NCBI GenBank assembly: GCA_041690135.1
Contig: JAWLHY010000011.1
Span: 192,001-256,000 of the forward strand
Length of the DNA: 64,000 nt
DNA from: Armatimonadota bacterium
Lineage (GTDB): Bacteria; Armatimonadota; SYMT01
Reading direction: 5' to 3'
This document shows positions 12,659 to 60,010 of the stretch, piece by piece. Within the stretch, counting starts at the first letter, position 1. The number at the start of each line of letters is the position of its first letter. The notes under the pieces are model-generated. The model did not search any database, was not told the DNA's origin, and saw nothing but the letters and a program-made list of their open reading frames with translations. Made by a program: the position numbers and the translations under genes.

Positions 12659-15600
12659 TCATGCTGGGCGAAAAGTGCCGTCGCTCACCCGGAACCGGTG
12701 GGCGGTGGGGTCCATCCGGGCGAGGAGGGCGGCGTCCTCGGGGCGGCAGGTGAAGTACAGCACCTGGCAGCCCTGCGCCACGCGGGCGATGGTGGCGGCG
12801 GCGTGCTGGAGGCGCTCGTAGCCGTCGGCGTGGACCAGCACGTCGTCCATGATGATGGGCAGGGGCTCGGTGTTGGGGCTGGCGTTGTAGTCCTCGATGA
12901 AGGCGAAGCGGAGCGCGAGGTAGAGTTGCTCGGAGGTGCCGCGGCTCCAGGTGGGCAGGCCTTTGCGGGAGCCGTCCTGCTCTTCCAGCAGCAGCTCTTC
13001 CAGGCCGTTCGGCGCGACGATCCCGGCGTACCGGCCGCCGGTGAGGCTGCCCATGAAGGAGCCGGCGCGGCGGATGATCCCCGGCTGCCGCTCCTTTTCG
13101 AACCGCTGCCGGGTCGCCTCCAGCAGCGCGTGGGTGATCCGGTGGAGGGCCCACTCGTCCGCCAGGTCGCGCAGCTCCGCTTCCTTCGACCGCAGCTCGC
13201 GGAGCTTTCCGGTGAGGCGCTCGTCGCTGGCGAGCTGGGCCAGCTCGTGGCGGACCTCGGCCAGGCGGGCGGCGCCGCTCTCCACCCCGCTCCGGGCCGC
13301 TTCCCGCTCTGCCTCGGCCTGCTCGAGCTGGAGCAGCATCGTCTCCTGGTTCAGCGCGGACAGCTCGGCTTCCAGCGCCTCCCGCACGGGGCCGGGACCG
13401 GAATGCGACTCCAGCACCCGTTCCAGGCGCCGGATCTCCGTTTCCAGGCGCTGCCGCTCGGCATACTGCGAGGCGCGCACCCGGAACGCCTCTTCTTCCT
13501 CCACTTCCGCCGCTCGGAGGAGGGCCTGGAGGTCGTCCTCGACCTGCCGGAGCCGTCCCGCGAGCAACTCCAGCTCCTGCCGGGCTTCTTCTGCCTGATC
13601 GCCCAGCCGGGACCGCTCGATCGACAGCGCCGTGCTCCGGTCCAGGGCGTCCTGGAGGTCGCGCACGGAGGCGGGTAGCTCCGAAGGGCGCGGGGCGGGG
13701 CGGCCCACGCGTTGAAAGAGGGCGCTCACCCGCGCCTCGAACTGCTCCAACTGCTCGCGGGTCCGCCGCACGCGCGTCTCCAGAGCGTGGCACTCCCGGA
13801 AGCCGCCGCGGGCCTGGGTGATCTCGGCAAAGAGCCGCAGGGCCGTCTCCGGCGGAGTCCCGAGCGGGAGAGAGCGCGCCGCAAGCCACTGCTCCCACTC
13901 CGTGCGGCGAGATTGGAGCGCCTCCACGGCGGCCTCGTGGCGGCGGGCGGCCTCTTCCACGGCATCCCGGGCGGCCGACCACTCCTCGCGTCGGGCGGTT
14001 ACGACGGCCAGCCCCGCCTCATAGCGGGCGCGCAGTTCCCGGCCCGCCTGCAGTTCATGGACGAGCCCCCGCACGGCCGGGCGGTCCGGTAAGACCTGGC
14101 CGACGAACCGCTCCACCTCGGCCAGGCTCTGACGGGTCTCCTCAAGGCGACCTTGTGTCCCGGCGGCCTTGCTCCGGTGTTCCGCCAGCAGCTTGCCCAG
14201 GCGGTCCAGCTCCTGCCGCAACTCCGCGCGGACCGCCTCCGCCGCCCGCCCGTGGCGCTGGAGCAGGGCGAAGAGCCCGGCCCCGAGCAGCAGGAGAAGG
14301 AGGCCGCTGCCGGCCGCGACAGGAACGTTGTCCCGGAGGGCCCACGCCAGCAAGGCGGCGCAGGGAACCAGCACCAGCGCCCAGGTCGCGGGGATCGGGG
14401 CCTGCCACCCCTCCAGGCGGCCCTGGCTCTGCGCGCGGCTCTCCTCCAGTTCCCGTTCCCGTTCGGCGTCCCGTTCCAACAGGTCCAGGCCCCGCTGCAC
14501 CAACTCCAGGCGTTCCGCGGCCTCGTCGAGACGCCGGAGCCGTTCCGCGCCGTCCGGCAGGGCGGGAGGCTCCTGGGGAAACTCCCGCTGGAGGGCTTCC
14601 CGGGCAGCGGCGAGCAGGGCATCCCGACGGACCGCCTCCCGCTCCGCCGTCTCCTGGGCGGCACGGGTGGTCTGCACCGCTTCGACCGCGCGGGCGAGGG
14701 CGTTCTGGGCGGCGCGAATCTCGTCTTCGCGGGCGATCGAGAGGTCGAACCGGGACAGCGACTCCTCGGTCCAACCCGGACCGAGTTTCCGGAGCACCTC
14801 TTCCCCCTCCTGGGCTTTCCGGTCCCGCTCCAGTTCCAGCACGGGCAGTTCGCGCTGCCAGGCCTCGTACTCGCCCAGCAGCTCCGCCACCTCGCGCAGC
14901 TCGCCGCGGGCCTCCAGCAGCGGCTCGTCCACCGCACACGCCTCGCTTCGCTGGCGGAGGCTCTCGAGCTGCTGATGGAGAGCGGCCTTGCGCTCTTCCC
15001 GGGCACGACGGTCTTCTCGGAGCCGCTCCAGGCGAGTCAACCCCTCTTCGGGGAAGGAAGAGATGGCGGACAACTGCGCCAGGGCGGCGCGGTGCTCGGC
15101 CAGCTCGATCCACGCTTCCCACACGGCGGCGCAGGCACGGGCGTGGACCAGCCGGCGCTCCGCTTCGCGCTCCGCCGTATGCCGGTCCGCCAGCGCGGAT
15201 TCTAGCTCCGCGCGTTCCGCCTCCAGGCGGTTGTACAGCTCCAGCTCGCCCCGCAGGCGCTCGACCTCCTGGCGCAGACCGTCCCGCTCCCGCAGCGCCC
15301 CGTTCAGCCGCGGCAGGGAGGCCCGGGGGCGGAAGATAGCGTCCGCCCGGTTCGTGGTGGTATTCAGCGCCTTGAGCAGCGACCCCGCCCCCGTGCCGGT
15401 GGCCGCGGCGTAGATGCGGCTGCGGACCCCCTCCGCCTGCAGCGCGTCCAGCCCCACCATCTCCTGCAGGCTGAAGGCGAACACGTTGCTGAAGAGCTGC
15501 CGGTCCGAGCCCCGGAGCAGCAGCTCCAGGTTGACGCGGGTCGTCTCCCCGACCACCGTCACGTCGGCCGTGCCGGCGGCCCCGCCTGGCTTGCGTTCGA

Positions 15601-15850
15601 TGCGGAGCAGCCGGCCCTGCCGGTCGCGGGCCAGCGCCCACCCCCCGTGGGTGCCGCCCCGCAGCGGCTCGTACTTACGCGCGCCGCGGCCGGTCTGGAA
15701 GCCGAACAGGAGGGAGCGCAGGAACTCCACGGTGGTGGACTTCCCGGCCTCGTTCGGCCCCTCCAGGATGTTCAGTCCCGGCGAGAGCGGCCCCAGCTCG
15801 GCATCCGCGAAGATGCCGAACCCGGAAAGATGAAGGCGTTCGAAGATCAT
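12659..15850 (-). CDS. YhaN-like AAA_27/Rad50-type ATPase with long coiled coil and central TM hairpin
   Basis: MIFERLHLSGFGIF, GPNEAGKST, C-terminal SRGTSEQLYLALRFA and LPIIMDDVLV; ATG overlaps the upstream stop. Confidence 0.9.
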   Translation of the reverse strand: MIFERLHLSGFGIFADAELGPLSPGLNILEGPNEAGKSTTVEFLRSLLFGFQTGRGARKYEPLRGGTHGGWALARDRQGRLLRIERKPGGAAGTADVTVVGETTRVNLELLLRGSDRQLFSNVFAFSLQEMVGLDALQAEGVRSRIYAAATGTGAGSLLKALNTTTNRADAIFRPRASLPRLNGALRERDGLRQEVERLRGELELYNRLEAERAELESALADRHTAEREAERRLVHARACAAVWEAWIELAEHRAALAQLSAISSFPEEGLTRLERLREDRRAREERKAALHQQLESLRQRSEACAVDEPLLEARGELREVAELLGEYEAWQRELPVLELERDRKAQEGEEVLRKLGPGWTEESLSRFDLSIAREDEIRAAQNALARAVEAVQTTRAAQETAEREAVRRDALLAAAREALQREFPQEPPALPDGAERLRRLDEAAERLELVQRGLDLLERDAERERELEESRAQSQGRLEGWQAPIPATWALVLVPCAALLAWALRDNVPVAAGSGLLLLLLGAGLFALLQRHGRAAEAVRAELRQELDRLGKLLAEHRSKAAGTQGRLEETRQSLAEVERFVGQVLPDRPAVRGLVHELQAGRELRARYEAGLAVVTARREEWSAARDAVEEAARRHEAAVEALQSRRTEWEQWLAARSLPLGTPPETALRLFAEITQARGGFRECHALETRVRRTREQLEQFEARVSALFQRVGRPAPRPSELPASVRDLQDALDRSTALSIERSRLGDQAEEARQELELLAGRLRQVEDDLQALLRAAEVEEEEAFRVRASQYAERQRLETEIRRLERVLESHSGPGPVREALEAELSALNQETMLLQLEQAEAEREAARSGVESGAARLAEVRHELAQLASDERLTGKLRELRSKEAELRDLADEWALHRITHALLEATRQRFEKERQPGIIRRAGSFMGSLTGGRYAGIVAPNGLEELLLEEQDGSRKGLPTWSRGTSEQLYLALRFAFIEDYNASPNTEPLPIIMDDVLVHADGYERLQHAAATIARVAQGCQVLYFTCRPEDAALLARMDPTAHRFRVSDGTFRPA

Positions 15851-17196
15851 GCCGCGCCCTCCGGGGTCGTGGTCCGCGCGCGGGACCGCGAGGGACGTGG
15901 GGTTTCCACTGGGTCCGGTCCGGGAACACCGGCGTCCTCCGTGCCCAACAGGAGATCCGCTCCCAGCGACTCCGCCCGCTCGATCCAGGCGTCGAGTCGC
16001 TCCGCCGGGTCCGGCAGCACGTCCCGCAGTTCCCGGCGCCCGTACAGGTCTTCCAGGGCCTGCAGCAGGCTCGCGCGCTGTACGGCGTCGCTCCGCGCCT
16101 CCCGGCAGATCCGCAGGAAGTCGCCCAGGAGATCCTCGCCCTGGCGGCGCTGTTCCAGGTCGATGCCGGGACGGGTGTCCACGTCGAGACGGTCCAGCCA
16201 CACAAACGGCTCGCCCTGGACCTCTCGCTGGAACTCCCCGGCGAGGGCCTGGACGTGCTCCTCCCGCTGCAGCAGCCGGTGCAGGGGACCGCGACCGGTG
16301 AGCCGGACCCGCGCGATGACGGAGACCCCCTCCTCGGCCCGCGCTTTCTCCAGCCCGCCCGCGATCCGGTCGAGGAGGTCGTCCTCCGTGGCGAGCCCCT
16401 CGATGGAGAGAGTGAGCGTTCGCCACCGCACGTCGTCGGTCCGCACGAACTCCACGGTGGGCACCCGGTGACTGTCGACCGAAACCCGGCAGCAGCCGTG
16501 CGGGCGGCCGTCCTCCCGGGGGCTCAGCCCCTGGGGTGTGCCGGGGTAGACCACCGCCGGTTCCGCGGCCTGCAGCACCTGGAAACTGTGGACGTGCCCC
16601 AGCGCCCAGTAGTCCATCCCCACGGCGGCCAGGTCCGGCAGCGTGCAGGGCGCATAGCTCTCGTGCCCCGGCTGCACCCCCACCGTGCCGTGCAACAGAC
16701 CGATCCGGAACAGGCCCTCGTCCTCTTTGCGCGGCCGGTAATGCGGCAACAAGCTCTCCCGCACGTCGCGCTGTGGATAAGAAGTGCCGTAGACCGCCGC
16801 CACCTTCTCCCCCTGCCAGAAGAGAATCTGTGGTGCGGAGGGGCGGGCCGGAAAGACGTGGACGTTCTCCGGCCACTCCAGGCGCGCCTGCGTGCCGGAG
16901 AGATGGTCGTGGTTCCCATGAATTACGAGCGCCGGGATCTCCGCTGCATCCAGCCGACGCAGCCCGTCCCGGAACCGGAGCTGCGCCCGGAGGTTGCGGT
17001 CCGCCCCGTCGTAGACGTCGCCCGCGAACAGCACGAACGCCGCTCCGCTCTCCAGGGCCAGGTTCAGGATGTTATCGAACGCCCGGTACGTGGCGCGGTC
17101 GACCGCTTCGGCCACCTCCGGGCTGACGGACCGGAGCCCGCTGAACGGTCCGCCCAGGTGGAGATCCGCGGCGTGGATGAAAGTGAAGGGGGTCAT
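15847..17196 (-). CDS. YhaO/Mre11/SbcD-like DNA repair metallophosphoesterase
   Basis: FIHAADLHLG, FAGDVYD, IHGNHD, GLLHG, YWALGHVH, YPGTPQG. Confidence 0.92.
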   Translation of the reverse strand: MTPFTFIHAADLHLGGPFSGLRSVSPEVAEAVDRATYRAFDNILNLALESGAAFVLFAGDVYDGADRNLRAQLRFRDGLRRLDAAEIPALVIHGNHDHLSGTQARLEWPENVHVFPARPSAPQILFWQGEKVAAVYGTSYPQRDVRESLLPHYRPRKEDEGLFRIGLLHGTVGVQPGHESYAPCTLPDLAAVGMDYWALGHVHSFQVLQAAEPAVVYPGTPQGLSPREDGRPHGCCRVSVDSHRVPTVEFVRTDDVRWRTLTLSIEGLATEDDLLDRIAGGLEKARAEEGVSVIARVRLTGRGPLHRLLQREEHVQALAGEFQREVQGEPFVWLDRLDVDTRPGIDLEQRRQGEDLLGDFLRICREARSDAVQRASLLQALEDLYGRRELRDVLPDPAERLDAWIERAESLGADLLLGTEDAGVPGPDPVETPRPSRSRARTTTPEGAA

Positions 17197-17598: not shown

Positions 17599-18018
17599 CT
17601 AATCGACCTCGATCCGTTCCGCGGCCTCCCAGAGCGTGACCGCCCGGTGGTGTTCTTCCTGGTTCTCGATGTAGCGGATCACCCGACGGAGGTGACTGGG
17701 GCTCACCGTCAGGCTGCCATACCCGCCCTGCCACTTGAACCCTTCACCCACCTCCACGCGAGCCTTATTCAAAGCGCGGGACGAGGCGCCTTTGACGCCC
17801 TCCGCAAAATCGGCCACGCAGAGTGTCCGCGGAAGAGAGACCAACAGATGGACGTGATCGGCGATCCCACCCAGCGCATGAACCTCGCAGCGCAATTCCC
17901 GGCACTTACTCCGGATCAAGGCATAAGCGTGTCGCTGGATGGGGCCGGTCAACAACGGCTCCCGGTTCCAGGTCGCCCAAACGAAGTGGTAAAACAGCCT
18001 CCCGTAGCTCTGCGCCAT
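17599..18018 (-). mobile_element. tnpA: IS200/IS605-like HUH Y1 transposase, probably REP-associated (RAYT-like)
   Basis: YHFVWATWNR, HUH motif DHVHLL, KWQGGYG, catalytic YIENQEEHH; flanked by REP arrays on both sides; no tnpB. Confidence 0.9.
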
Positions 18019-18129
18019 AGCCTCTCCTTGCATCCGGCAAGTCTACAATGGTTGCCTCCTTCCCGTTCGGACAGGAGACGGGCTCCTCCTGCTACTGGAT
18101 ACCTGACATAGGGCGGGGCAATGGTCCGG

Positions 18130-19435: not shown

Positions 19436-20155
19436 ATGTTCAAGCGCTCGTCTCGAGGGTTCACCCTCATCGAACTTCTCGTAGTGATAGCGATCATCGC
19501 CATCCTCGCCGCTATCCTCTTCCCGGTTTTCGCCCGCGCCCGCGAGGCCGCCCGCGCCTCTTCTTGCGTGAACAACCTCAAGCAGATCAACCTCGCGGTG
19601 ATGCAGTACACCCAGGACTACGATGAGGTCCTGCCGATCATGAACGCCATCGCCAGCGCCCCTCCGGTGGCGGGTGAGAGCGGCTGGGTCAACGCGGTGG
19701 CCCCGTATATCAAGAACACCCAGGTCTTCAAGTGCCCCAGCGCCTCCGGGGCCCAGGCGACGGCAACCTGCACCTCTTTCCAGATGGGTGGCGTTTCCTA
19801 CACCGGCGTGGGGTGGGCGGTGCCGATTCTGGATTATGCCATCAACCAGAACCTGGCTGCCGGAGGGTCCCAGGCCACCGCGCTGGGGCTGGCGAGCATG
19901 GAGTATCCAGCAAATATCGTGATGAACCTGGAGACCAACCGGCTGCGCGGCTGTGCGGGCGGCGAGAACTGGAACGGCGACTTCATCGGGCTGCGGGGCG
20001 CCACGCCCGCCGCGCGGAACACCTGCCTCACCCGCCACAACGACGGCAGCAACTACGGCTTCGCCGACGGGCACGTGAAGTGGGCCAAGGCGGAAAGCAT
20101 CAAGCAGTCCTACGCCACACCCGGCACCGAGCCGTTCTGGTTCATCGCCCCGTAG
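19436..20155 (+). CDS. Prepilin-type N-methylation / DUF1559 protein with H-X9-DG motif
   Basis: [30 protein letters not shown]; [17 protein letters not shown]. Confidence 0.92.
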
Positions 20156-22768: not shown

Positions 22769-23134
22769 TCATTTAGAGGCGCCAGACTCCTGCCAGAGTG
22801 TCTTGACCCGCTCCACCGCGGAGCGGAACTCCTGGTAGGCCTCCGGGCTGGCGCCGATGAACTCCACGCCGCTCACTACCCAGGAAGCCAGCTCCGGCTG
22901 CCGCAGGTGGTAGTAGACGTGGCGACCCTCGCGACGTTCCTCCACAATCCGGTGTGCCCGCAGGACGGCAAGGTGCTGCGATACGCCGGACTGGGCGATC
23001 CCCAGGATCCCCTGCAGGGTCTGTACGTCCCGCTCTTCGCTCCCCAGCTCCTCGATGATCCGGATGCGGTGCGGGTGGGAGAGCACGCTGAAGAGACTCG
23101 CGAGCTCCTTGCTGACCAGTGCGCGTTCAGGCAT
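22769..23134 (-). CDS. ArsR/SmtB family transcriptional regulator (no Cys)
   Basis: [33 protein letters not shown]. Confidence 0.92.
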   Translation of the reverse strand: MPERALVSKELASLFSVLSHPHRIRIIEELGSEERDVQTLQGILGIAQSGVSQHLAVLRAHRIVEERREGRHVYYHLRQPELASWVVSGVEFIGASPEAYQEFRSAVERVKTLWQESGASK

Positions 23135-23459: not shown

Positions 23460-25502
23460 ATGCGTATTCGTCCACTCCTGACCCTGATCTCGACCTTGCC
23501 GGTGGCGACCCTCCTGGCGGCCCCTCCGTTGTACGCGGATTCTCCCTTGCCGGTACGCCTGCAGATCGCCGGTATGGAGCTTCGGGGTGCCGCCCCCGCC
23601 CTTTTCGACGGCAAAGAGACGTATGCCCCGCTGGAGGTGCTGTCGGCGGTCGGCCTGGAAGTGGAGAAAACCCCGCGCAAGCAGGGCGCGGTCGTTGTGA
23701 CGGACCCGGACAGCGGTAAGCGCAGTGAGCTCCGCCTCACGAAACGGGCCGGAAAGTCGCTGCTGCCGCTCTCGGAAGTGGCCCGGTTGGTGGAAGGCGA
23801 CGTGGAGCGGCCGGCCCGGTTGGATAAGGACGGCACCCCGGTGCCGGCCAAGCCGGGCGACTGGGTCTACCTTCTGGCGCGGGTCCGGTCCGTGCAGGTG
23901 ACGGAAGGCACGGTACGGATCGACACCACCTTTCCGGTCCCGGTGCGGAACGCCCCCTTGGAGGATGAGACGGCGCTGCAGGTCACGGTGGAGTGCGTCG
24001 GCGCCGCGGTGCCGGAGAGCTTCTCTCCCGCCCCCCTTCCCCCGGACGAGCGGCGGGTGCGGGCGGTGGCCGTTTCCCAGGCCCGGGTGGACGTGGTGCG
24101 GGTCACCCTGGACCTGGCCGCTCCCCCCGCCGGAGCCTGCGCCGAGCCCGGGGAACCGGCCGGGGCGCAGGCCGAGCCGCTGCTGCTGGATGACGTCCTC
24201 CGGCAGGTGCAGGGGAACTACCCCAAGTTGAGCGCCGCCGATGCCGAGCGCCGTACGGCCGCGGCAAAGCTGCGCGAAAAGCAGGGGTTCTTCGACCCGG
24301 TCCTTACCGGCGGCAGCGAGTTCACCCGCTTTCCGGATAGCGACAAGCTGGGAGCGCTGAAGTCGTTTTCGGCTACCTTCGCGGGCGTCGAGTTCCTCAC
24401 CCCGTACGGGATCAAGGTGATTACGGGCGGACGCCGCCACGACGGCTCGGTGAAGTCGCCCCTCTCCCCCACGGGAAGCACCGGCGAGTACTTCGTGGGC
24501 GTGAAGCTCCCGCTGCTGGCCGGGGCGGGGATCAACGAGAAGTCCGCGGCGCTCCGGCAGAGCCGGCTGGGCGTGCCGCTGGCCGATAGTGAGTTCGACC
24601 TGACCCGGATCGAGGTACTGCTGAAGGCGGCGAACGTCTACTGGGACTGGGTGGCCGCCGGCCGCCGGGTGGACGTGGCCCGGAACCTGCTCGGGCTTGC
24701 CCGGGTCCGGGCGCAGGCGGTGCGGGAGCGTGCCGAGTTGGGCGACCTCCCCCTGATCGACGTGACCGAGGCCAACCAGGAGGTCCAGCGCCGCATCGAG
24801 GGCCTCCAGAAGTCGGAGCGGGAGTGGCAGAAGGAGACCTTCAAGCTCTCCGTGTTCCTCTGGAATGCCGACGGAACGCCGATGCCGCTGCCTACCCTGG
24901 CAAACCTGCCCCCCGCGACGCCGCCCGCCGGCGCGCTGGAGGATGAGCGGGTGGAAGACGGCCGCAGCCTGGCGCTCGAGCGGCGCCCGGAGCTGCAGGC
25001 CCTCACCCTGGCCCAGCGGTTCACCCGGGTGAGCCTCGACCTGGCCCGCAACCAGCGGCTGCCCGCGATCGACCTGTCCCTGGCGCCCGGCGTGGATACC
25101 GGGTTCGGCGGGGCGGGCGGGACGCTCAAAGCCGGCGTATCGGTGGGGCTGCCGCTGCGACAGCGGACCGCCGAGGGCCGCATCCAGGAGGCGCGGCTGA
25201 AGCTGGAAAAGCTGGAGTTGGACCAGCAGTTGGAACGCCAGCGGATCGTTACGGAGGTGGCGGATGCCGCCTCGGCCGTCCGGCAGGCCTATCAGCGTTA
25301 CGTGGCCGCCGCGGAAGAGCTGTCCCTGGCCCGCAGGCTGGAACAGGGCGAGCGCGACCGGTTCGACCTGGGCGACAGCACCCTGTTCCTCGTGAACCAG
25401 CGCGAGCGGGCGACCGCCGAGGCGGCCGTCAAAGTGATTACCATCCAGGCGGAGTACGAGCAGGCCCTGGCCCTGTTCCGGGCCGTTACCGCGCAGATCT
25501 AG
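23460..25502 (+). CDS. TolC-family outer membrane factor with ~240-aa N-terminal extension (AMIN-like)
   Basis: Signal peptide; OEP repeats ([30 protein letters not shown]); N-terminal [21 protein letters not shown] is AMIN-like. Confidence 0.85.
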
Positions 25503-25509
25503 GCTCTCC

Positions 25510-27396
25510 ATGCACACCCACCACGCTTCTCATTCTTCCGCTCATCCCTCCCCGCACGCTTCACACGGCGGGGACCATGCCCACCCCACGCCCCAGCAAC
25601 GCCTGCGCCGGATGCTGTGGGAAGACCGCAGCGATCTCGCGGTGCTCTTCGCCTACATCATGGTGACGGGGATCTTCGTGCTCGCCGTGCCGCTCGCGGC
25701 GCAGGCGCTGGTGAACACCATCGCGGCCGGGTTCTCGCTCCAGCCGTTGATCGTGCTGACCCTGCTCGTGCTGGGAGGCCTGCTCTTCGCGGGGGTGCTC
25801 CGCCTGCTACAGCTTTCCATCGTGGAAACGCTCCAGCAGAGGGTGTTCGCTCGCGTGGCGCTCCAGTTGGCGAACCGCCTGCCGCGGGTCCGACAGCAGG
25901 CCCTTTCGGAAGGCTACGCTCCGGAGCTGGTCAACCGCTTCTTCGACGTGCTGACTATCCAGAAGACCTTCTCCAAGCTGCTGCTCGACGGCGTGGCGGC
26001 CGCCCTGCAGGCTACGGTCGGGTTGATCCTGGTGGCGTTCTACAACCCGCTGCTCCTGGGGTTCGCCCTCTTCATCCTCGCCTCGTTCTTCTTCATCAGC
26101 GTGGGTCTCGGGTTCGGCGGTCTCCGCACAAGCATCCACGAGTCGATCCAGAAGTACCGCGTCGCGGACTGGCTGGAAGAGCTGGCGCGGTGCCATGCCA
26201 GCTTCAAGATGCACGCCGGGGGCAGCTTCCTCACCGACCGCGCGGATGCCCTGGTGATGGACTATATCGCCGCCCGCCGCTCCCACTTCGTGGTCGTGTT
26301 CCGGCAGGCGGTCGGCAACTACTTCTTCCAGGCGGTCGCCAGCGCCGGCACGCTGGGGATCGGCGGCTGGCTGGTGATCAACCGCCAGCTCACCCTGGGG
26401 CAACTCGTCGCGGCGGAGCTGGTGGTGGTGTCGGTTCTCTCCGCCATGGACAAGCTGATCAAGCAGGCCGAGCAGGTCTACGACCTCCTGACCGCCCTGG
26501 ACAAAGTGGGGCACGTGACCGACCTTCCCCTGGAGCGCGAAGACGGAGCTCCGCTTCCGGCCGGCACCGCGGGGGCCCGCGTGCTCTGTCGGGGCGTCCG
26601 GTTCTCCTACCGCCCGGGCGCGGAGGTGCTCGCCGGCCTGGACCTGCAGCTTCAGCCCGGGGAACGGGTGAGCCTGGTGGGGATCAGCGGCGCCGGGAAG
26701 AGCACCCTGGCCGCGCTGCTCTGCGGGCTGGAAGAGCCCAGCCACGGCGCCGTGGAGATCAACGGGATGGAGGTCCGCTCCGCGACCCTCCCCTCCCTGC
26801 GCCGCGTGGTGAGCCTGGTGAGCGACGACCAGGAGATCTTCTCCGGCACCCTGGAAGAGAACGTGCGCGTCGGTCGGGCCCACGTGTCCCACGAAGACAT
26901 GCGCTGGGCCCTGGAAATCGCGCAGCTGACGGACGAGCTGTCGCTGCTCCCCTACGGCACGAAAACCCGGCTGGTGAGCGGCGGCAACAATCTCTCCCAC
27001 GGCCAGGCCCAGCGGCTGCTGATCGCCCGCGCCATCGTCGACCGTCCCCAATTGCTGATCCTCGACGAAGCGTTCACCGGCATCGACGAGCGGACCAAGC
27101 TGGAGATCCTGGATGCGCTGTACGCGCCGGAGCACCAGTGGACCCTGATCGACATCTCCCACGATGCGGAGGTGGTGATGCGCTCCAGCACGGTTCACGT
27201 CCTGAGCCAGGGCCGCATCGTGGAGTCCGGCCCTCCCGAGGCGCTGGTGACCCGCGCCGGGTCCGCGTTCGCCTCCCTCTTCCCGGACCTCGCGGCGCAG
27301 ATCCAACGCGGCCGCGCCCCGGGCTCACCGGAACCGGCTGCCTCCCGATCTAACACCTTGCCGGAGGGGGCGGGCGTCGTGGTGGAAATGGCATGA
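25510..27396 (+). CDS. Type I secretion-type ABC transporter (TMD+NBD) with His-rich N-terminus
   Basis: [29 protein letters not shown]; [15 protein letters not shown]; [12 protein letters not shown]. Confidence 0.9.
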
Positions 27397-27700
27397 GGAC
27401 CGATCGTGCATCGCTGTTGGAGCGGGGGCCGCATGATGGGTACTCACTCATAAACGTCCCCGTGGAGAGCCAGGACGTGCCTAAGGGGATAAGGGAAGTA
27501 TCGGAACAATTCTTGACCGCTCGGCGCGAACCTGCTTCTCCACCCAGCTCAATGAGGCTTGCCGGAGTGACGGCGCTTGCGCGGCCGTGTACTGGGAAAC
27601 CGTACCTGCTCAGTTACTTGCACACACCCTTAGCCTTCCTCGGCATGAACGTGGTCGCGTCGATACCGAACAGGACTCGCCACCAAGTCTTGGGCGTGGG

Positions 27701-27952
27701 CTCCCCCCTCTCTGTGTCGGAGAGGGGGCCGGGGGGTGAGGTTACCATGCTCACCGTACTTGCCAGCGAAGATGCACTCCCGAAATGCGCTCCCCCTGGT
27801 TATCCACCCCGTCCTACACACGGGCTCCCCCTCTCCCGCAGCGTGGGAGAGGGGCTAGGGGTGAGGGCTCTCTGGTCACCCCTCTCTACGTCGGAGCCGG
27901 GTCCCGAAGGCTTTCGAGAGGGGGTACCCCGTACGGGGTGGCGGGGGATGAG
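27701..27952 (+). repeat. Three CCCCTCTC..GAGAGGGG..GGG(T/A)GAGG REP-like elements
   Basis: Copies at ~27701, 27825 and 27879; same family at ~30762, 35339 and 37952. Confidence 0.75.
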
Positions 27953-28128
27953 GTTACCGAGGGTACCGGATCCGGCAATGGTGACGCTCATAAGGCCCGC
28001 GCAGGTCTACGCCCGGGCCGGACACACTTCGGGTGGCGCGCGCGGATGTGGGGTGCGGGGACGGTGCTGTTGCAGAGCCCCAAGGTTTAGCTCGGGGATC
28101 CTTTGCGGGTTGGATAGGGGACCGATGA

Positions 28129-30219
28129 ATGACAGTTGCTGAAAGATCGCTGGGTGATCAGACGCTTCCCTCGGGCGGGAGCTCGAAGCTGCCGGTTTCG
28201 CTGCAATCGGTCGCGCCTCGGGCGTGGGCGGGGCGGGTGGTGGTGATGTTGCTGGTCCTGGTGGTGCTGGTGGCGTCGTGCCTCATTTTCGTCCCCTGGC
28301 AGCAGTCCGTCACGGGGAACGGGCGGATCATCGTCTACTCCGCGATGGAGCGCCCGCAGAACGTGGACGCGCCTATCCCCGGACGATTGGTCCGCTGGCA
28401 CATCCAGGAAGGACAGGTCGTCCGGGCCGGGGAGACGCTCGCCGAGATCTCCGACCTGGACTCCAAGTTCCTGGACCCGGAACAGGCGCGGCGGCTCCAG
28501 GATCAGCGGGCGGCGCTGGTGATCCGCCGGGAGGCGGCCCAGGCCCGCGCGGCGGCGCTGGAGAGCCAGCTTCAGTTCCTGGATCGCTCCCGGAACGTGG
28601 CCATCCCCACCGCGGGAGAGCGGGCCATGCAGGCCCAGGAGCGCCTGGGGGCCGCCCGCGAAGCGCTGACGGCGTCCAAACAGAGCTATACGGCCTCGCG
28701 AGAGGTCTCCCTGCCCTCGGCCCGGGAGAAGGCTCTGCAGGCCGAAGAGCGAGAACGGGCCGCGCAAGAGACTTTGACGGCAGCTATCCAGAGCCTGAAG
28801 GCCGCCGAGGAAGTCGGGCTGCCCACCTCGCGCGAGAAAGCCTCCCAGGCAAAGGAACGGGAACGCGCCGCGGAGGAAGCCCTGATCGCGGCCCAGCAGA
28901 ACCTCAGGGCCGCGCAGGAGGTCGCCATCCCCTCCGCCCGGGAGAAGCTGCAACAGGCAGTGGAGAAGAAGCGGGCGGCGGAGCAGGCGGTTCAGGCCGC
29001 CCGGCAGGTCCTGGTGGCATCGGGGCTGAACCGCGAGCGGATCCGCGAGCTGTTCAAGAAGACGCTGCGCTCCCGCCGCGACGATGAGCTGGCGGAAGTG
29101 GACCTGGTACGCGCCCGGACCGACGTGGAGCGGGCCCAGGCCGCGCTGTCCGTCGCGGAGCGCGACGTGCGGGTCGCCGAGCTAGACCAGGAGAAGGCGC
29201 AGGTGGATGCCCAGCGCGCCCGGACCGAGGTCGAGCGCGCGAAGGCGGCGGTGGATATCGCCCGGCGCGACACCACCGTGGGCGGCTTCGACCTGACCAA
29301 GGCGCAGGTGGACATCGAGCGGGCGCGGACCGAAGTCGAGCGCGCCCGGGCCGCCCTGGATATCGCCCGGCGGGACGTGAAGGTGGCCCGGCTGGAAGCC
29401 AACCGCGCCGAGCTGGACGTGGTCCGCGCCCGCACCGAGGTCGAGCGTTCCCGGGCCGGCGTGGACATCGCGCGGCGGGACACCTCCGTCGGCGACCTGG
29501 ACCGGACGAAGGTGGAGGCCGACACCGCGGCGACCCTCAGCAGCGTGCAGGCCTCCCTCGCCTCGGCCCGGGAGACGATCGCCTCCATCACCAGCGACAT
29601 CCTCAAGGTGGAAGTCGAGCTGCAGAACGTGCGACAGCGCATGGACCAGCGGTACATCCGCGCTCCCCGCGACGGTCGCGTCGTCCGCCTGATGCGGGTC
29701 GGGGCCGGCGAGGCCGTGAAGTCCGGCGACACCCTCGCGGTGCTGGCGCCGGAGACCGCCGACCAGGCGGTGGAGCTGTACCTCTCCGACAACGATGCTC
29801 CCCTGGTGGACGTCGGGCGCCCCGTCCGGCTGCAGTTCGCCGGCTGGCCCGCGCTGCAGTTCTCCGGCTGGCCTTCCGTGGCGGTGGGGACGTTCGCGGG
29901 ACGGGTCACGGTGATCGACGCCATCGACGACGGCACCAGCCGGTACCGGGTGATCGTGAAGCCGGACGAGGAGCTCATCCGGCAGGGCAAGGAAGAGCCG
30001 TGGCCGAACCCGCGGCAGTTGCGCCCCGGCGCCGAAGTGACCGGGTGGGTGATGCTGGAAACGGTCTCCCTTGGCTTCGAGCTGTGGCGCCAGTTCAACG
30101 CCTTCCCGCCGACCATCGAGCGCGATCCGTCCGACAAACCGGACGCTTACGGCAAGAGCACCTCGGAGGGCAAGGGGGACGGCAAGGGCGGCGAGATCAA
30201 GCGGAAGGCGGGCAAATGA
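28129..30219 (+). CDS. HlyD-family periplasmic adaptor with a greatly extended, repeat-built alpha-hairpin
   Basis: TM anchor + [10 protein letters not shown], lipoyl halves APIPGRL..EGQVV and [38 protein letters not shown]. Confidence 0.9.
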
Positions 30220-30617
30220 GGCCAGAGCATTCTCCTGAAGCCCCGGCCCTGCCGGAAGACGCGCTGGTCGCGCGGGAGTTGGGCCACCTGCTGGGCATCC
30301 TCTCCCACCCCGGCCGCATCCGCATCATCGAGGAGCTGCGGGCCGAGGAGCGAGATGTGAATCACCTGCAGGAAGTGCTCCACGTGAGCCACTCCCGCGT
30401 CTCGCAGCACCTGAGCGCGCTCCGGGCGCACCGCCTGGTGATTGAGCGGCGCGAGGGGCGCCACGTGTACTACCGGCTCCGGCAGCCGGAGATTGCGGCC
30501 TGGCTGTTGGGCGGCCTGCACTTCATCGAGGGAGAGCGGGAAGCGCTGGAAGAGTTCCACGCGGCGGCGGAACGGGTGCGGGCCATCTGGCCCGAGTCCG
30601 CGTCGTCGCGCGGGTGA
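30216..30617 (+). CDS. ArsR/SmtB family regulator, paralog of 22769-23134
   Basis: ATGA overlap with the adaptor stop; [30 protein letters not shown]. Confidence 0.9.
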
Positions 30618-30949
30618 GGATGAAAGGGCGTGTGCGTTGGCCTGTTGCGGGTGGTGACCTGGGCAACCTCACCCCCAGCTCCGTGGGCGTTCACCTACGG
30701 CGAGACGACGATGGCTGCCGCTCCTTTCATAAAAAGGAGCTGCTCCGTCTTGAGCACGGGATCCCCCTCTCCCGCCGCGGTGGGAGAGGGGCAGGGGTGA
30801 GGGCCGTCTTGGCGACTGGTAACTGCTACTTAATCGTCAACCCACGCAACTGCACATCTGAAAAGAGCCGGACCGAACCCAAACGGTTAACATCGGCGGG
30901 CTCATCACTAACAGTCCGTACAGTAACGGATGATCGACAAGGAAAACAA

Positions 30950-33314: not shown

Positions 33315-33387
33315 CGCCCCCGGCGTGAATCGAACACGCGACCAATTGCTTAGAAGGCAACTGCTCTATCCGCTGAGCTACGGGGGC
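33315..33387 (-). tRNA. tRNA-Arg(UCU), CCA not encoded
   Basis: GCCCCCGTAGCTCAGCGGATAGAGCAGTTGCCTTCTAAGCAATTGGTCGCGTGTTCGATTCACGCCGGGGGCG forms a cloverleaf; anticodon loop CT-TCT-AA. Confidence 0.95.
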
Positions 33388-50026: not shown

Positions 50027-50893
50027 ATGTACACCAGGCGCTGGGTCCGGTTGCGGGGGTTCACCCTGATCGAGCTGCTCGTAGTGATTGCCATTATCGC
50101 TATTCTTGCAGCGATACTCTTCCCGGTCTTTGCACAGGCCCGAGATGCGGCCCGGAAGGCGACGTGCGTCAGTAATCTCAAGCAGATCGGGCTGGCCCTG
50201 AACATGTATGTCCAGGACTACGATGAGACCATCGGGGCCACTACCTACGGCGACTCCTGCCGCGCGAGCGGTGCTCCGGGGGCGGCGCGCTCCGATGCCA
50301 ACTACGTGGGGATGCCCGGCTGGCCGGTCGCGTTGCAACCCTACGCGAAGAACCTCGGGTTCCTCTCCTGCCCGTCGGACCCGCATAAGGGCGGCTTCGC
50401 AAAGACCGGCTCCTACTGCTACGAGGCGCAGATGGTGCAGGGGAACCTGCCGGGGGCCTATACCGGGATCAGCGCCAACAACGCGGACATGCGGAAGGTG
50501 CTGCCGCTCTCCTACAGCGCCAACTACTTCCTGAGCAACACTCAGGCCACCCCATACCGGCCGGCGGCGCCGGACATCCCCGGCGGCGTGGCACTGGCCG
50601 CCATTGCCCGGCCGGCGGAGGTGTTCTTCGTCACCGAGAACGGCACGGACCCGGCCGCCGGGTACGCCGCCTACTACATCACCCCCGGCTACGGCAATTC
50701 CGCCAGCCCCACCAACCGTTGGGCGATGGGAATGCGCCACCAGGAAGGTCGCGTGTGGGTGTTCGTGGACGGCCATGCCAAGTGGTCGAAGGACATCCCC
50801 TACCTCAAGTCCCCCGGCGTGGCGAAGACGCAGGCGGAGTTGATCGCGGAATACGCCGCGCGGGGTATCCTCACTGACCCCTTCACCCCGTAG
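50027..50893 (+). CDS. Prepilin-type DUF1559 / H-X9-DG protein
   Basis: [30 protein letters not shown]; [17 protein letters not shown]. Confidence 0.92.
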
Positions 50894-59311: not shown

Positions 59312-59359
59312 GGCCGGGTTCCGCCGGATCGTCCGTTCGCAACAAGAAGGGTGTCCTTT

Positions 59360-60010
59360 ATGATGCTACATCACACCAACCGGCCCCGGACACGGCGGGG
59401 CTTCACGCTGATTGAACTGCTCGTCGTCATAGCCATCATCGCCATCCTGGCCGCCATCCTCTTCCCGGTCTTCGCCCGCGCCCGCGAGGCCGCCCGCGCC
59501 ACCAGTTGCAAGTCGAACCTGAAACAAATCGGGATTGCGACCCAGCTCTACGCCCAGGACTACGACGAGCGGGTCGTCTCCGCCTTCATCTACTACTCCC
59601 CCTCCGACAACCTGGTCTGGTGGCCGGATCTCATCCGCCCTTACGCCAAGAACGAGCAACTCACGCTCTGCCCCAGCGCGCCCAATCCGCAGAATTACTG
59701 CACGAACTGGCGCCGGCCCGCTGGGATGGTCCCGCCTTCGGTTTGCTTCAATTACACCTTCCCCGACTGGTTCAACGGACGTGCGATGGCCGAGCTTCCG
59801 GTCCCGGCCGACACCATCCAGGGGGTTGACTCCAACAGCCACGAGTACTGGAGCTACGAGCAGACGGATGCCCCGATGAACCGCAGCACCTACACCCCGC
59901 GGACAGCCAAGCGCCACAGCGAGATGATGAACGTGCTCTACCATGATGGCCACGTGAAGGCGGTGAAACAGACCCGCCTCGGGGAGTGGACCATCGCCGA
60001 AGGCGACTAA
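59360..60010 (+). CDS. Prepilin-type DUF1559 / H-X9-DG protein
   Basis: [31 protein letters not shown]; [16 protein letters not shown]. Confidence 0.92.

Follow-up and report, generated by a model that had tools for sequence, protein, structure and literature searches.

A predicted four-module coiled-coil hairpin in the HlyD-family adaptor of a putative three-part exporter from an Armatimonadota genome

The stretch of DNA analysed here, hereafter the window, comprises 64,000 nucleotides (nt) of contig JAWLHY010000011.1 (positions 192,001 to 256,000, forward strand) in the Armatimonadota assembly GCA_041690135.1, and carries a cassette of genes for a putative exporter: a TolC-like outer-membrane factor (OMF), an ATP-binding cassette (ABC) exporter, and a periplasmic adaptor, with an ArsR-family regulator on either side. 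The open reading frame (ORF) at 28129-30219 (+) encodes the adaptor, a 696-amino acid (aa) membrane fusion protein of the HlyD family that contains all of the repeats with which this study is concerned. Taking the lines of evidence below jointly, we favour, with moderate confidence, a reading in which an ABC/adaptor/TolC-like exporter has gained an extended hairpin of four modules, most likely bridging a wider gap between the membranes.

The repeats fall into two sets on either side of a tip motif. Four ascending units (U1-U4) start at residues 157, 193, 229, and 265 (nt 28597, 28705, 28813, and 28921), and four descending units (D1-D4) start at residues 328, 363, 398, and 433 (nt 29110, 29215, 29320, and 29425). 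The original prediction, made from the DNA alone, had placed repeats exactly 108 bp apart in the ascending set and exactly 105 bp apart in the descending set, with an RxxxLxxxxxxS (RLS) tip between them, and all three elements were recovered inside the ORF, as 36-aa units, 35-aa units, and the tip residues R304, L308, and S315 (Table 1). Pairwise identity ranged over 44-67% (aa) and 54-65% (nt) among the ascending units and over 46-66% (aa) and 62-76% (nt) among the descending units, and the units are therefore old copies and not recent ones. On the question of a block duplication from 2+2 to 4+4, unit likeness within proteins placed D2 nearest to D4, whereas U2 was nearest to U3. Tandem Repeats Finder found the 105-bp array (29215-29501, 2.7 copies, 70% matches) and missed the 108-bp array. 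In a self-comparison of the adaptor, the six top diagonals had offsets of 35, 70, 36, 105, 72, and 108, with respective scores of 103, 95, 88, 81, 75, and 53; the observed best of 103 compares with a best-diagonal mean of 38.2 (standard deviation 4.1, maximum 54) over 200 shuffles of residues 113-499. Proline is present at position 4 of all four ascending units in 10 of 10 four-unit proteins.

The tip motif of the adaptor has the spacing R304-x3-L308-x6-S315. Across 104 aligned sequences, R304 and L308 were invariant and S315 was retained in at least 90%, and the RLS motif stood at the same place in 220 of the 247 relatives whose arms could be measured (see below). This motif (RxxxLxxxxxxS/T) is described as the TolC-binding tip of MacA, AcrA, and HlyD in the accessible text of PMC3391258.

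Table 1. Features of the export cassette and of the adaptor gene, in positions of the window (HMM, hidden Markov model; REP, repetitive extragenic palindromic)
Feature	Position	Strand	Evidence
ArsR-family regulator, divergent from the cassette	22769..23134	-	Pfam HTH_20/HTH_5
TolC-like OMF, 680 aa	23460..25502	+	Pfam OEP, 2 stretches, E = 1e-40
ABC exporter, fused permease and ATPase, 628 aa	25510..27396	+	Pfam ABC_tran, E = 2e-29
732-bp spacer, ABC to adaptor gene	27397..28128	.	GC-rich palindromic REP-like elements
Adaptor: single N-terminal transmembrane anchor, aa 34-55	28228..28293	+	Hydropathy; AlphaFold2 helix 32-54
Adaptor: split lipoyl (barrel-sandwich) domain, N-terminal half, aa 78-107	28360..28449	+	Pfam Biotin_lipoyl_2, E = 3.8e-9
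Adaptor: ascending helix base segment, aa 113-156	28465..28596	+	Helical in both AlphaFold2 models
Adaptor: four 36-aa ascending repeats U1-U4 (108 nt each)	28597..29028	+	Unit comparison, repeat HMMs, heptad counts
Adaptor: hairpin tip with RLS motif, R304/L308/S315	29038..29073	+	Alignment; AlphaFold2 loop 311-315
Adaptor: four 35-aa descending repeats D1-D4 (105 nt each), five heptads apiece	29110..29529	+	Tandem Repeats Finder, unit comparison, HMMs
Adaptor: descending helix base segment, aa 468-499	29530..29625	+	Helical in both AlphaFold2 models
Adaptor: lipoyl C-terminal half and beta-barrel domain, aa 500-660	29626..30108	+	Pfam HlyD_3
Second ArsR-family regulator, downstream of the adaptor	30249..30617	+	Pfam HTH_5

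Outside of the repeats, the adaptor has a split lipoyl domain with an inserted helical hairpin. The Pfam matches Biotin_lipoyl_2 (78-107) and HlyD_3 (510-574, E = 9.5e-15) bracket residues 113-499, the ~390 residues between them have no Pfam match, and beta strands flank the helices in the AlphaFold2 model; HlyD_D23 scored 28.5 bits, under its cut-off of 30. A single N-terminal anchor was evident from hydropathy, where the top 19-aa window, from residue 37, reached 3.44 and the runner-up elsewhere 1.08, and this anchor, together with the OMF and ABC genes lying in that order directly upstream on the same strand, is as expected of an adaptor. The family profile was collinear end to end with the chain of Escherichia coli HlyD in 8dck (E = 2e-18) and also matched EmrA in 4tko (E = 3.5e-16), so that the original designation of the protein as a periplasmic adaptor was upheld by both the Pfam domains and the HlyD match. 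Judged by its sequence, the protein is a member of the wider HlyD superfamily, in a subfamily separate from TIGR01843.

Both arms of the hairpin keep a heptad register. Starting at the tip serine, every residue 315+7k up to k = 20 is small, which amounts to 21 unbroken heptads (Ser, 17 Ala, 2 Gly, and Ser) from S315 to G455 through all of the descending units, and in a count by frame the descending arm had 19 of 20 small residues in register versus no more than 5 of 20 in any of the other six. Positions 6, 13, 20, 27, and 34 of the ascending units are small without exception (20 of 20), and position 6 of a following unit comes eight residues after position 34; each ascending unit is thus composed of five heptads plus one skip residue at its V-x-(I/L)-P start, which explains why it has 36 aa and a descending unit 35. 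Across the ten four-unit proteins the register was kept at 200 of 210 descending and 195 of 200 ascending positions, the background frequency of small residues being 0.27, and in the remaining family it was weaker yet clear (77-100% vs. 27% background). A small residue at each seventh position is a hallmark of tight antiparallel 'alacoil' packing, and we read the present pattern, in which that residue is mostly Ala, as suggestive of tight, alacoil-like packing of the two arms. Alacoil packing receives mention in the available text of bioRxiv 10.1101/503698.

Structure prediction with AlphaFold2 on an alignment of the ten four-unit proteins returned two continuous helices, at residues 119-310 (192 aa) and 316-506 (191 aa), with a five-residue loop between them and, from residue 121 to residue 490, a predicted local distance difference test score (pLDDT) of 86-95 in each block of ten residues; the beta domains were poorly modelled from this shallow alignment. 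When the deeper alignment of 104 sequences was used, the beta strands at 509-647 had high pLDDT. EmrA was the top solved-structure match of both models, and the best fold matches of the 104-sequence model were EmrA, EmrAB-TolC, MacA, and AcrA; the other Protein Data Bank matches of the ten-protein model were long antiparallel coiled coils (chemoreceptor hairpins, SMC/MukB/Rad50 arms, dynein stalks, and HlyD). The original prediction had put each arm at about 190 aa and had proposed a monomer model as a check that the repeats form an extended hairpin and not a side domain. The two long helices of the ten-protein model agree with both statements, and the heptad register, the antidiagonal couplings of one-unit relatives described below, and the fold matches to EmrA, MacA, and AcrA likewise describe an antiparallel two-helix hairpin. 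Helix breaks at all four Pro or Gly joints were considered and rejected, as both models are helical there and the Gly residues lie within the small-residue core register.

From the length of the ascending helix (192 residues at ~1.5 Å per residue, a rise taken from the 127 Å of an 84-residue helix in EmrA; PMC4158417, accessible text), we infer a hairpin ~29 nm long. By the same computation, the one-unit relatives would measure ~13 nm, each module pair would add ~5.3 nm, and the excess of a four-unit form would come to ~16 nm. At ~387 residues, the predicted hairpin of the adaptor is about twice the longest solved.

The pairing of the arms was examined by mean-field direct-coupling analysis (DCA) of 157 one-unit hairpins (effective number 136), with gap columns excluded. 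One antidiagonal band, comprising 9.8% of all pairs, held 24 of the 60 strongest long-range couplings, and when the descending halves were dealt to other proteins as a control, 0 of 60 fell within the band in 8 of 8 runs. The base of the ascending arm coupled with the base of the descending arm, and the Pro at position 4 of the ascending unit coupled with the Leu at position 25 of the descending unit, which indicates that the unit starts of both arms face each other. Heptad insertions and deletions (indels) between relatives also lay at equal height in both arms, as in P0070 versus P0043 and P0110 versus P0104. When couplings learned on the one-unit proteins were applied to multi-unit proteins, nested pairing (U_i:D_(n+1-i)) outscored same-index pairing in 33 of the 42 two-unit proteins, which, as related sequences, do not count as independent trials.

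The lengths of the two arms were measured by anchoring three conserved blocks (the N-terminal lipoyl half, the tip, and the C-terminal lipoyl half) on 275 collected proteins. All three blocks were present in 254, seven of which had them out of order (fragments), leaving 247 usable proteins (Table 2); close relatives are included, as are a few proteins that share a cluster, and the counts are therefore not of independent events. Ascending and descending lengths were correlated with a Pearson r of 0.997, and the ascending arm exceeded the descending by 5-12 residues in 245 of the 247 proteins, the two outliers being P0256, which has a weak tip match, and P0153. The series 77/68, 113/103, 149/138, and 185/173 proceeds by exact steps of +36/+35, i.e., 1, 2, 3, and 4 module pairs, and the remaining length classes show matched differences of 7, 14, or 21 residues. 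Repeat-specific HMMs likewise returned matched counts of 4+4 (P0001-P0009), 3+3 (P0010), 2+2, and 1+1. With the exception of these two outliers, the expectation that ascending and descending counts co-vary across homologues was therefore realised, and the arms differ by 36/35-aa module steps or by matched heptads in keeping with the modular, balanced extension that had been proposed.

Table 2. Lengths of the ascending and descending arms in 247 relatives of the adaptor
Ascending arm (aa)	Descending arm (aa)	Proteins
26	18	10
56	47	3
63	54	4
65	57	6
70	61	2
72	64	80
72	65	1
72	67	1
73	64	1
77	68	77
78	40	1
82	64	1
86	78	5
113	103	42
120	110	1
134	124	1
149	138	1
185	173	10

Gain on both sides takes two separate duplications. 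No unbalanced n+1/n intermediate was found among the 247 proteins, an absence that speaks for selection on balance. Clear imbalance was seen only in P0153, an Elusimicrobiota-type form, and in the Elusimicrobiota loci L029 and L030, with an ascending arm of 78 and a descending arm of 40 residues, in which we take a Gly-rich stretch in the ascending arm for a loop; their existence means that an unbalanced form can persist. No form beyond four units was found in 5.8 billion clusters queried with both the whole protein and the repeat region alone, nor among the 150 best-scoring of 1.84 billion representatives. Relatives of 645-1202 aa were considered as candidates for forms with five or more units and were rejected: they carry N-terminal extensions and one-unit or shorter hairpins, and the repeat-region search topped at 4+4. 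In P0107, P0160, P0164, P0168, P0173, P0181, P0234, P0241, and others, the extension places 250-860 residues in front of the lipoyl domain.

Units at the same position were 55-74% identical across the ten four-unit proteins, versus 40-57% between positions, in proteins that are 58-89% identical overall, and this positional orthology implies that the four-unit state is old. In a tree built by a quick LG+G4 method from the non-hairpin columns of 99 of the 247 proteins, sub-sampled by class, the four-unit rows clustered with thirteen two-unit rows (Shimodaira-Hasegawa-like approximate likelihood ratio test, SH-aLRT, 86); the four-unit state was compatible with a single origin, and the two-unit state needs at least two. 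We also fetched 80 loci of relatives from a genome collection, of which 70 could be scored for the lengths of the ascending and descending arms: 39 were (72,64), 24 (77,68), 3 (113,103), 1 (120,110), 2 (78,40), and 1 (65,57). There was no four-unit locus among the 80 loci kept. All four two-unit loci belonged to Armatimonadota and shared the gene order of the window, OMF-ABC-adaptor. Four of the metagenome-assembled genome records (L002, L003, L008, and L011), labelled Heliomicrobium or Heliobacteriaceae (Bacillota), contain ABC, adaptor, and OMF genes, and a short fifth record with the same kind of label (L021) contains a partial adaptor gene only; an OMF is unexpected under a Bacillota label, and the binning or naming of the four records may be off.

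Within the cassette, the OMF, whose exact 680-aa sequence was found in the protein collection, has an extra N-terminal region of ~240 aa (23460-24179: a signal peptide and ~215 aa) followed by an ordinary core of ~440 aa. Residues 1-240 had no Pfam match, and the region gave a weak Atlas lead (0.86) to Cu_amine_oxidN1/AMIN-like wall-associated domains that falls below the reliability line of that tool. The span of the core differed from those of 60 relatives, the four two-unit loci included, by -9 to +15 aa, and the two-unit loci have only 20-64 ORF residues ahead of it. A lengthened OMF was accordingly set aside as a candidate, the additional 240 aa being N-terminal and the TolC core of normal length.

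The ABC exporter matched ABC_membrane at 24 bits, under the cut-off of 28, and no C39 or C39-like peptidase domain was found on it in Pfam at E up to 0.1; its top NCBIfam matches were to NHLP-bacteriocin, LssB, and HlyB-type exporters, all under their cut-offs. The N-terminus of the exporter is rich in His (25510-25590; 9 His within the first 25 residues), and this start, together with the two flanking ArsR-family genes, which are 60% identical, hints at a metal-related signal or cargo. The spacer that follows contains REP-like elements in which a CCCCTCTCCC/GGGAGAGGGG stem is followed by GGGGTGAGG, and a similar copy of the element lies just downstream of the cassette at 30755-30804. Searches of the 732 bp for Rfam families, promoters, and terminators gave nothing of note. 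In most of the 80 loci of relatives, unlike the window, the ABC and adaptor ORFs overlap or are a few bases apart. An OMF was present in 67 of these loci, an ABC gene in 74, the adaptor in 80, and an ArsR-like ORF in 14; there was no further conserved neighbour and no nameable substrate gene in the 80 loci, nor was an RTX-type substrate seen, so that the hallmarks of type I secretion were not recovered, although a substrate may be encoded elsewhere.

Elsewhere in the window are three prepilin-type N-methylation/DUF1559 proteins (19436-20155, 50027-50893, and 59351-60010), one of which has a C-terminal H-X9-DG motif; such sets typify Planctomycetota, along with some other phyla. A Planctomycetota origin of the window, which these proteins had first suggested, was set aside: the closest named relative of the window's PutA, at 75% identity, comes from an Armatimonadota metagenome-assembled genome, the nearest Atlas cluster is mostly Armatimonadota, the two-unit loci are all Armatimonadota, and the scored Planctomycetota loci have the one-unit form only. 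The window also contains an IS200-like Y1 transposase gene at 17599-18033 (-) and a tRNA-Arg(TCT) gene at 33315-33387 (-). At 12659-17196 (-), a very long ORF comes after a metallophosphoesterase gene, and we guess the two to be an SbcD/SbcC-like pair, though no tool named them so.

In the mechanism that we propose, the ABC pump, the adaptor, and a TolC-like duct would make up a three-part exporter. One predicted helix anchors the adaptor in the inner membrane, and its split lipoyl domain bears a predicted antiparallel coiled-coil hairpin of ~190 residues per arm, made of four nested module pairs (U1:D4, U2:D3, U3:D2, and U4:D1) with five heptads in the descending and five plus a skip residue in the ascending member, the conserved RLS tip remaining at the far end. 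Homology with HlyD, MacA, and EmrA suggests that the adaptor assembles as a sealed alpha-helical tube of six copies whose tips dock on an OMF of ordinary length. The adaptor alone would then carry all of the length change of the assembly, and the extra ~16 nm relative to one-unit relatives would most likely bridge a wider inner-to-outer membrane gap in this lineage of Armatimonadota, a diderm Terrabacteria phylum. The original prediction had supposed a molecular ruler for envelope width. Given that balance of the arms is a folding need of any antiparallel hairpin, it is by itself no evidence of a ruler, and in our proposal the adaptor would be a spacer matched to the envelope and not a ruler that sets it.

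Several observations weigh against the proposed extended, envelope-matched hairpin. The 104-sequence AlphaFold2 model, for all its confident beta domains, has one low-confidence break per arm, the two (224-235 and 385-399) being level with each other, and a predicted template modelling score (pTM) of 0.47. In the ten four-unit proteins, admittedly a weak test, nested pairing ranked 2, 3, 3, 5, 7, 9, 10, 11, 17, and 17 among the 24 possible pairings. The top NCBIfam model for the adaptor, TIGR01843 (type I secretion HlyD subfamily), reached 76.8 bits against a cut-off of 208.65. As for the carriers, 5 of 5 scored Planctomycetota loci had the one-unit form, and Armatimonadota include both two-unit forms and, probably, four-unit forms. 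The paired breaks could be a hinge or elbow, in which case the adaptor might fold or bend at mid-length, at the start of U3 and the Gly-Gly of D2, and its reach would be adjustable or less than 29 nm. The pLDDT at both breaks is below 50, in the window adaptor (P0001) they fall where Gly is at or beside a unit joint in both arms, and one of the fold matches is the MukB coiled-coil elbow; yet the breaks coincide with columns that are only ~10% occupied in the 104-sequence alignment, the ten-protein model is helical through both sites at a pLDDT of 91-94, and Foldseek matches any long antiparallel coiled coil. Moreover, G385 is in the small-residue core register, so a helix break is not required there, and Gly occupies that position of the descending unit in only 5 of the 10 four-unit proteins. 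A hinge at mid-length strikes us as distinctly improbable.

Rather less improbable, though still unlikely in our estimation, is that the hairpin is extended in service of another end, whether to reach an OMF offset by its N-terminal domain, to cross a thick wall layer, or to form a long sealed chamber. The N-terminal extra of the window's OMF, set beside the short leaders of the two-unit loci, and the lead from this region to wall-associated domains would fit such a use, although that lead does not attain the reliability line; the lack of a conserved substrate gene near the relatives' loci can be read in its favour, and the failure to find a substrate against it. Alternatively, module number could be nearly neutral, changing by slippage or unequal recombination under a constraint on balance only, in a flexible periplasm that tolerates any length. 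Unit number did change several times on the tree, with at least two origins of the two-unit forms, and relatives also differ by matched indels of 7, 14, and 21 residues. What makes near-neutrality very hard to credit is the age of the units, which share only 44-67% aa identity within one protein and are positionally orthologous among the ten proteins, along with the want of recent copies and of unbalanced intermediates among the 247 proteins and the compatibility of the four-unit forms with a single origin.

To our knowledge, although tripartite pumps must span the whole periplasm, how they cope with differing envelope widths has hardly been studied outside of Proteobacteria. With one to four module pairs on a scaffold that otherwise stays the same, and an outer-membrane partner that does not vary, the family is a natural length series and presents a testable system for envelope spanning. 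Its regular five-heptad module, with Ala at every seventh position and one skip residue, is in addition a clean blueprint from nature for building antiparallel coiled-coil rods to a set length. A further conjecture, which we hold to be doubtful, is that module number (1-4 pairs, ~5.3 nm each) reports the distance between the host's inner and outer membranes. Were this true, the envelope width of uncultured diderm Terrabacteria would be readable from genomes, trans-envelope ducts would adapt by quantised, two-sided gain of modules, and the skip residue would double as a built-in flexible joint.

Among known systems, E. coli HlyD (8dck, 5c21/5c22) resembles the window adaptor in its N-terminal anchor, split lipoyl domain, long alpha-helical domain, and beta-barrel, in its partnership with an ABC exporter and TolC, and in an RLS/RLT-type tip motif (PMC3391258, accessible text). 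At 478 aa, however, HlyD is the size of the one-unit relatives, and the window adaptor has three more module pairs, or ~213 residues. Aquifex aeolicus EmrA (4tko), like the window adaptor, has a two-stranded antiparallel coiled coil without a membrane-proximal domain. In the accessible text of PMC4158417, its hairpin of 168 residues, 127 Å, and 11 heptads per helix with one discontinuity is called exceptionally long, the corresponding figures for other adaptor hairpins being 58 Å for AcrA, 47 Å for MexA, 67 Å for MacA, and 27 Å for CusB, and its heptad break comprises 4 residues in the N-terminal helix and 3 in the C-terminal helix. This one-residue excess of the N-terminal helix mirrors the 36/35 asymmetry of the window adaptor's modules. 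In contrast, EmrA pairs with a major facilitator superfamily pump, whereas the window has an ABC pump gene and an adaptor with ~387 hairpin residues in four regular modules. MCE proteins (LetB and PqiB) are modular trans-envelope tunnels that derive their length from a variable number of repeated modules; their fold, of stacked MCE rings, and their lipid cargo differ, and the likeness is by analogy only.

Lpp and SlpA/OmpM are similar in being long periplasmic coiled coils whose length varies by lineage in relation to envelope spacing. Diderm Terrabacteria are described as having wide, variable periplasms and coiled-coil tethers of lineage-specific length, with an SlpA stalk of ~28 nm within a 121-nm periplasm (PMC9388160, accessible text), OmpM has been reported in Armatimonadetes (bioRxiv 10.1101/2021.05.31.446380, as far as its available text goes), and the envelope-spanning machines of E. 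coli are sensitive to lengthened Lpp (Lpp+21; PMC8824477). Unlike the window adaptor, which is predicted to be an antiparallel, duct-forming hairpin, these proteins form parallel trimers and serve as tethers between the outer membrane and the wall. That heptad indels in adaptor hairpins are balanced has already been published (Symmons et al. 2015, PMC4446572, accessible text), and the matched indels of 7, 14, and 21 residues in the window adaptor's family follow the same rule. Nothing in the literature that we searched, from which subscription journals were mostly absent, described 35/36-residue modules in a quantised series of one to four copies or a hairpin of ~390 residues. Balanced heptad indels as such are thus known, and what appears to be new here is the quantised series of one to four modules at such length.

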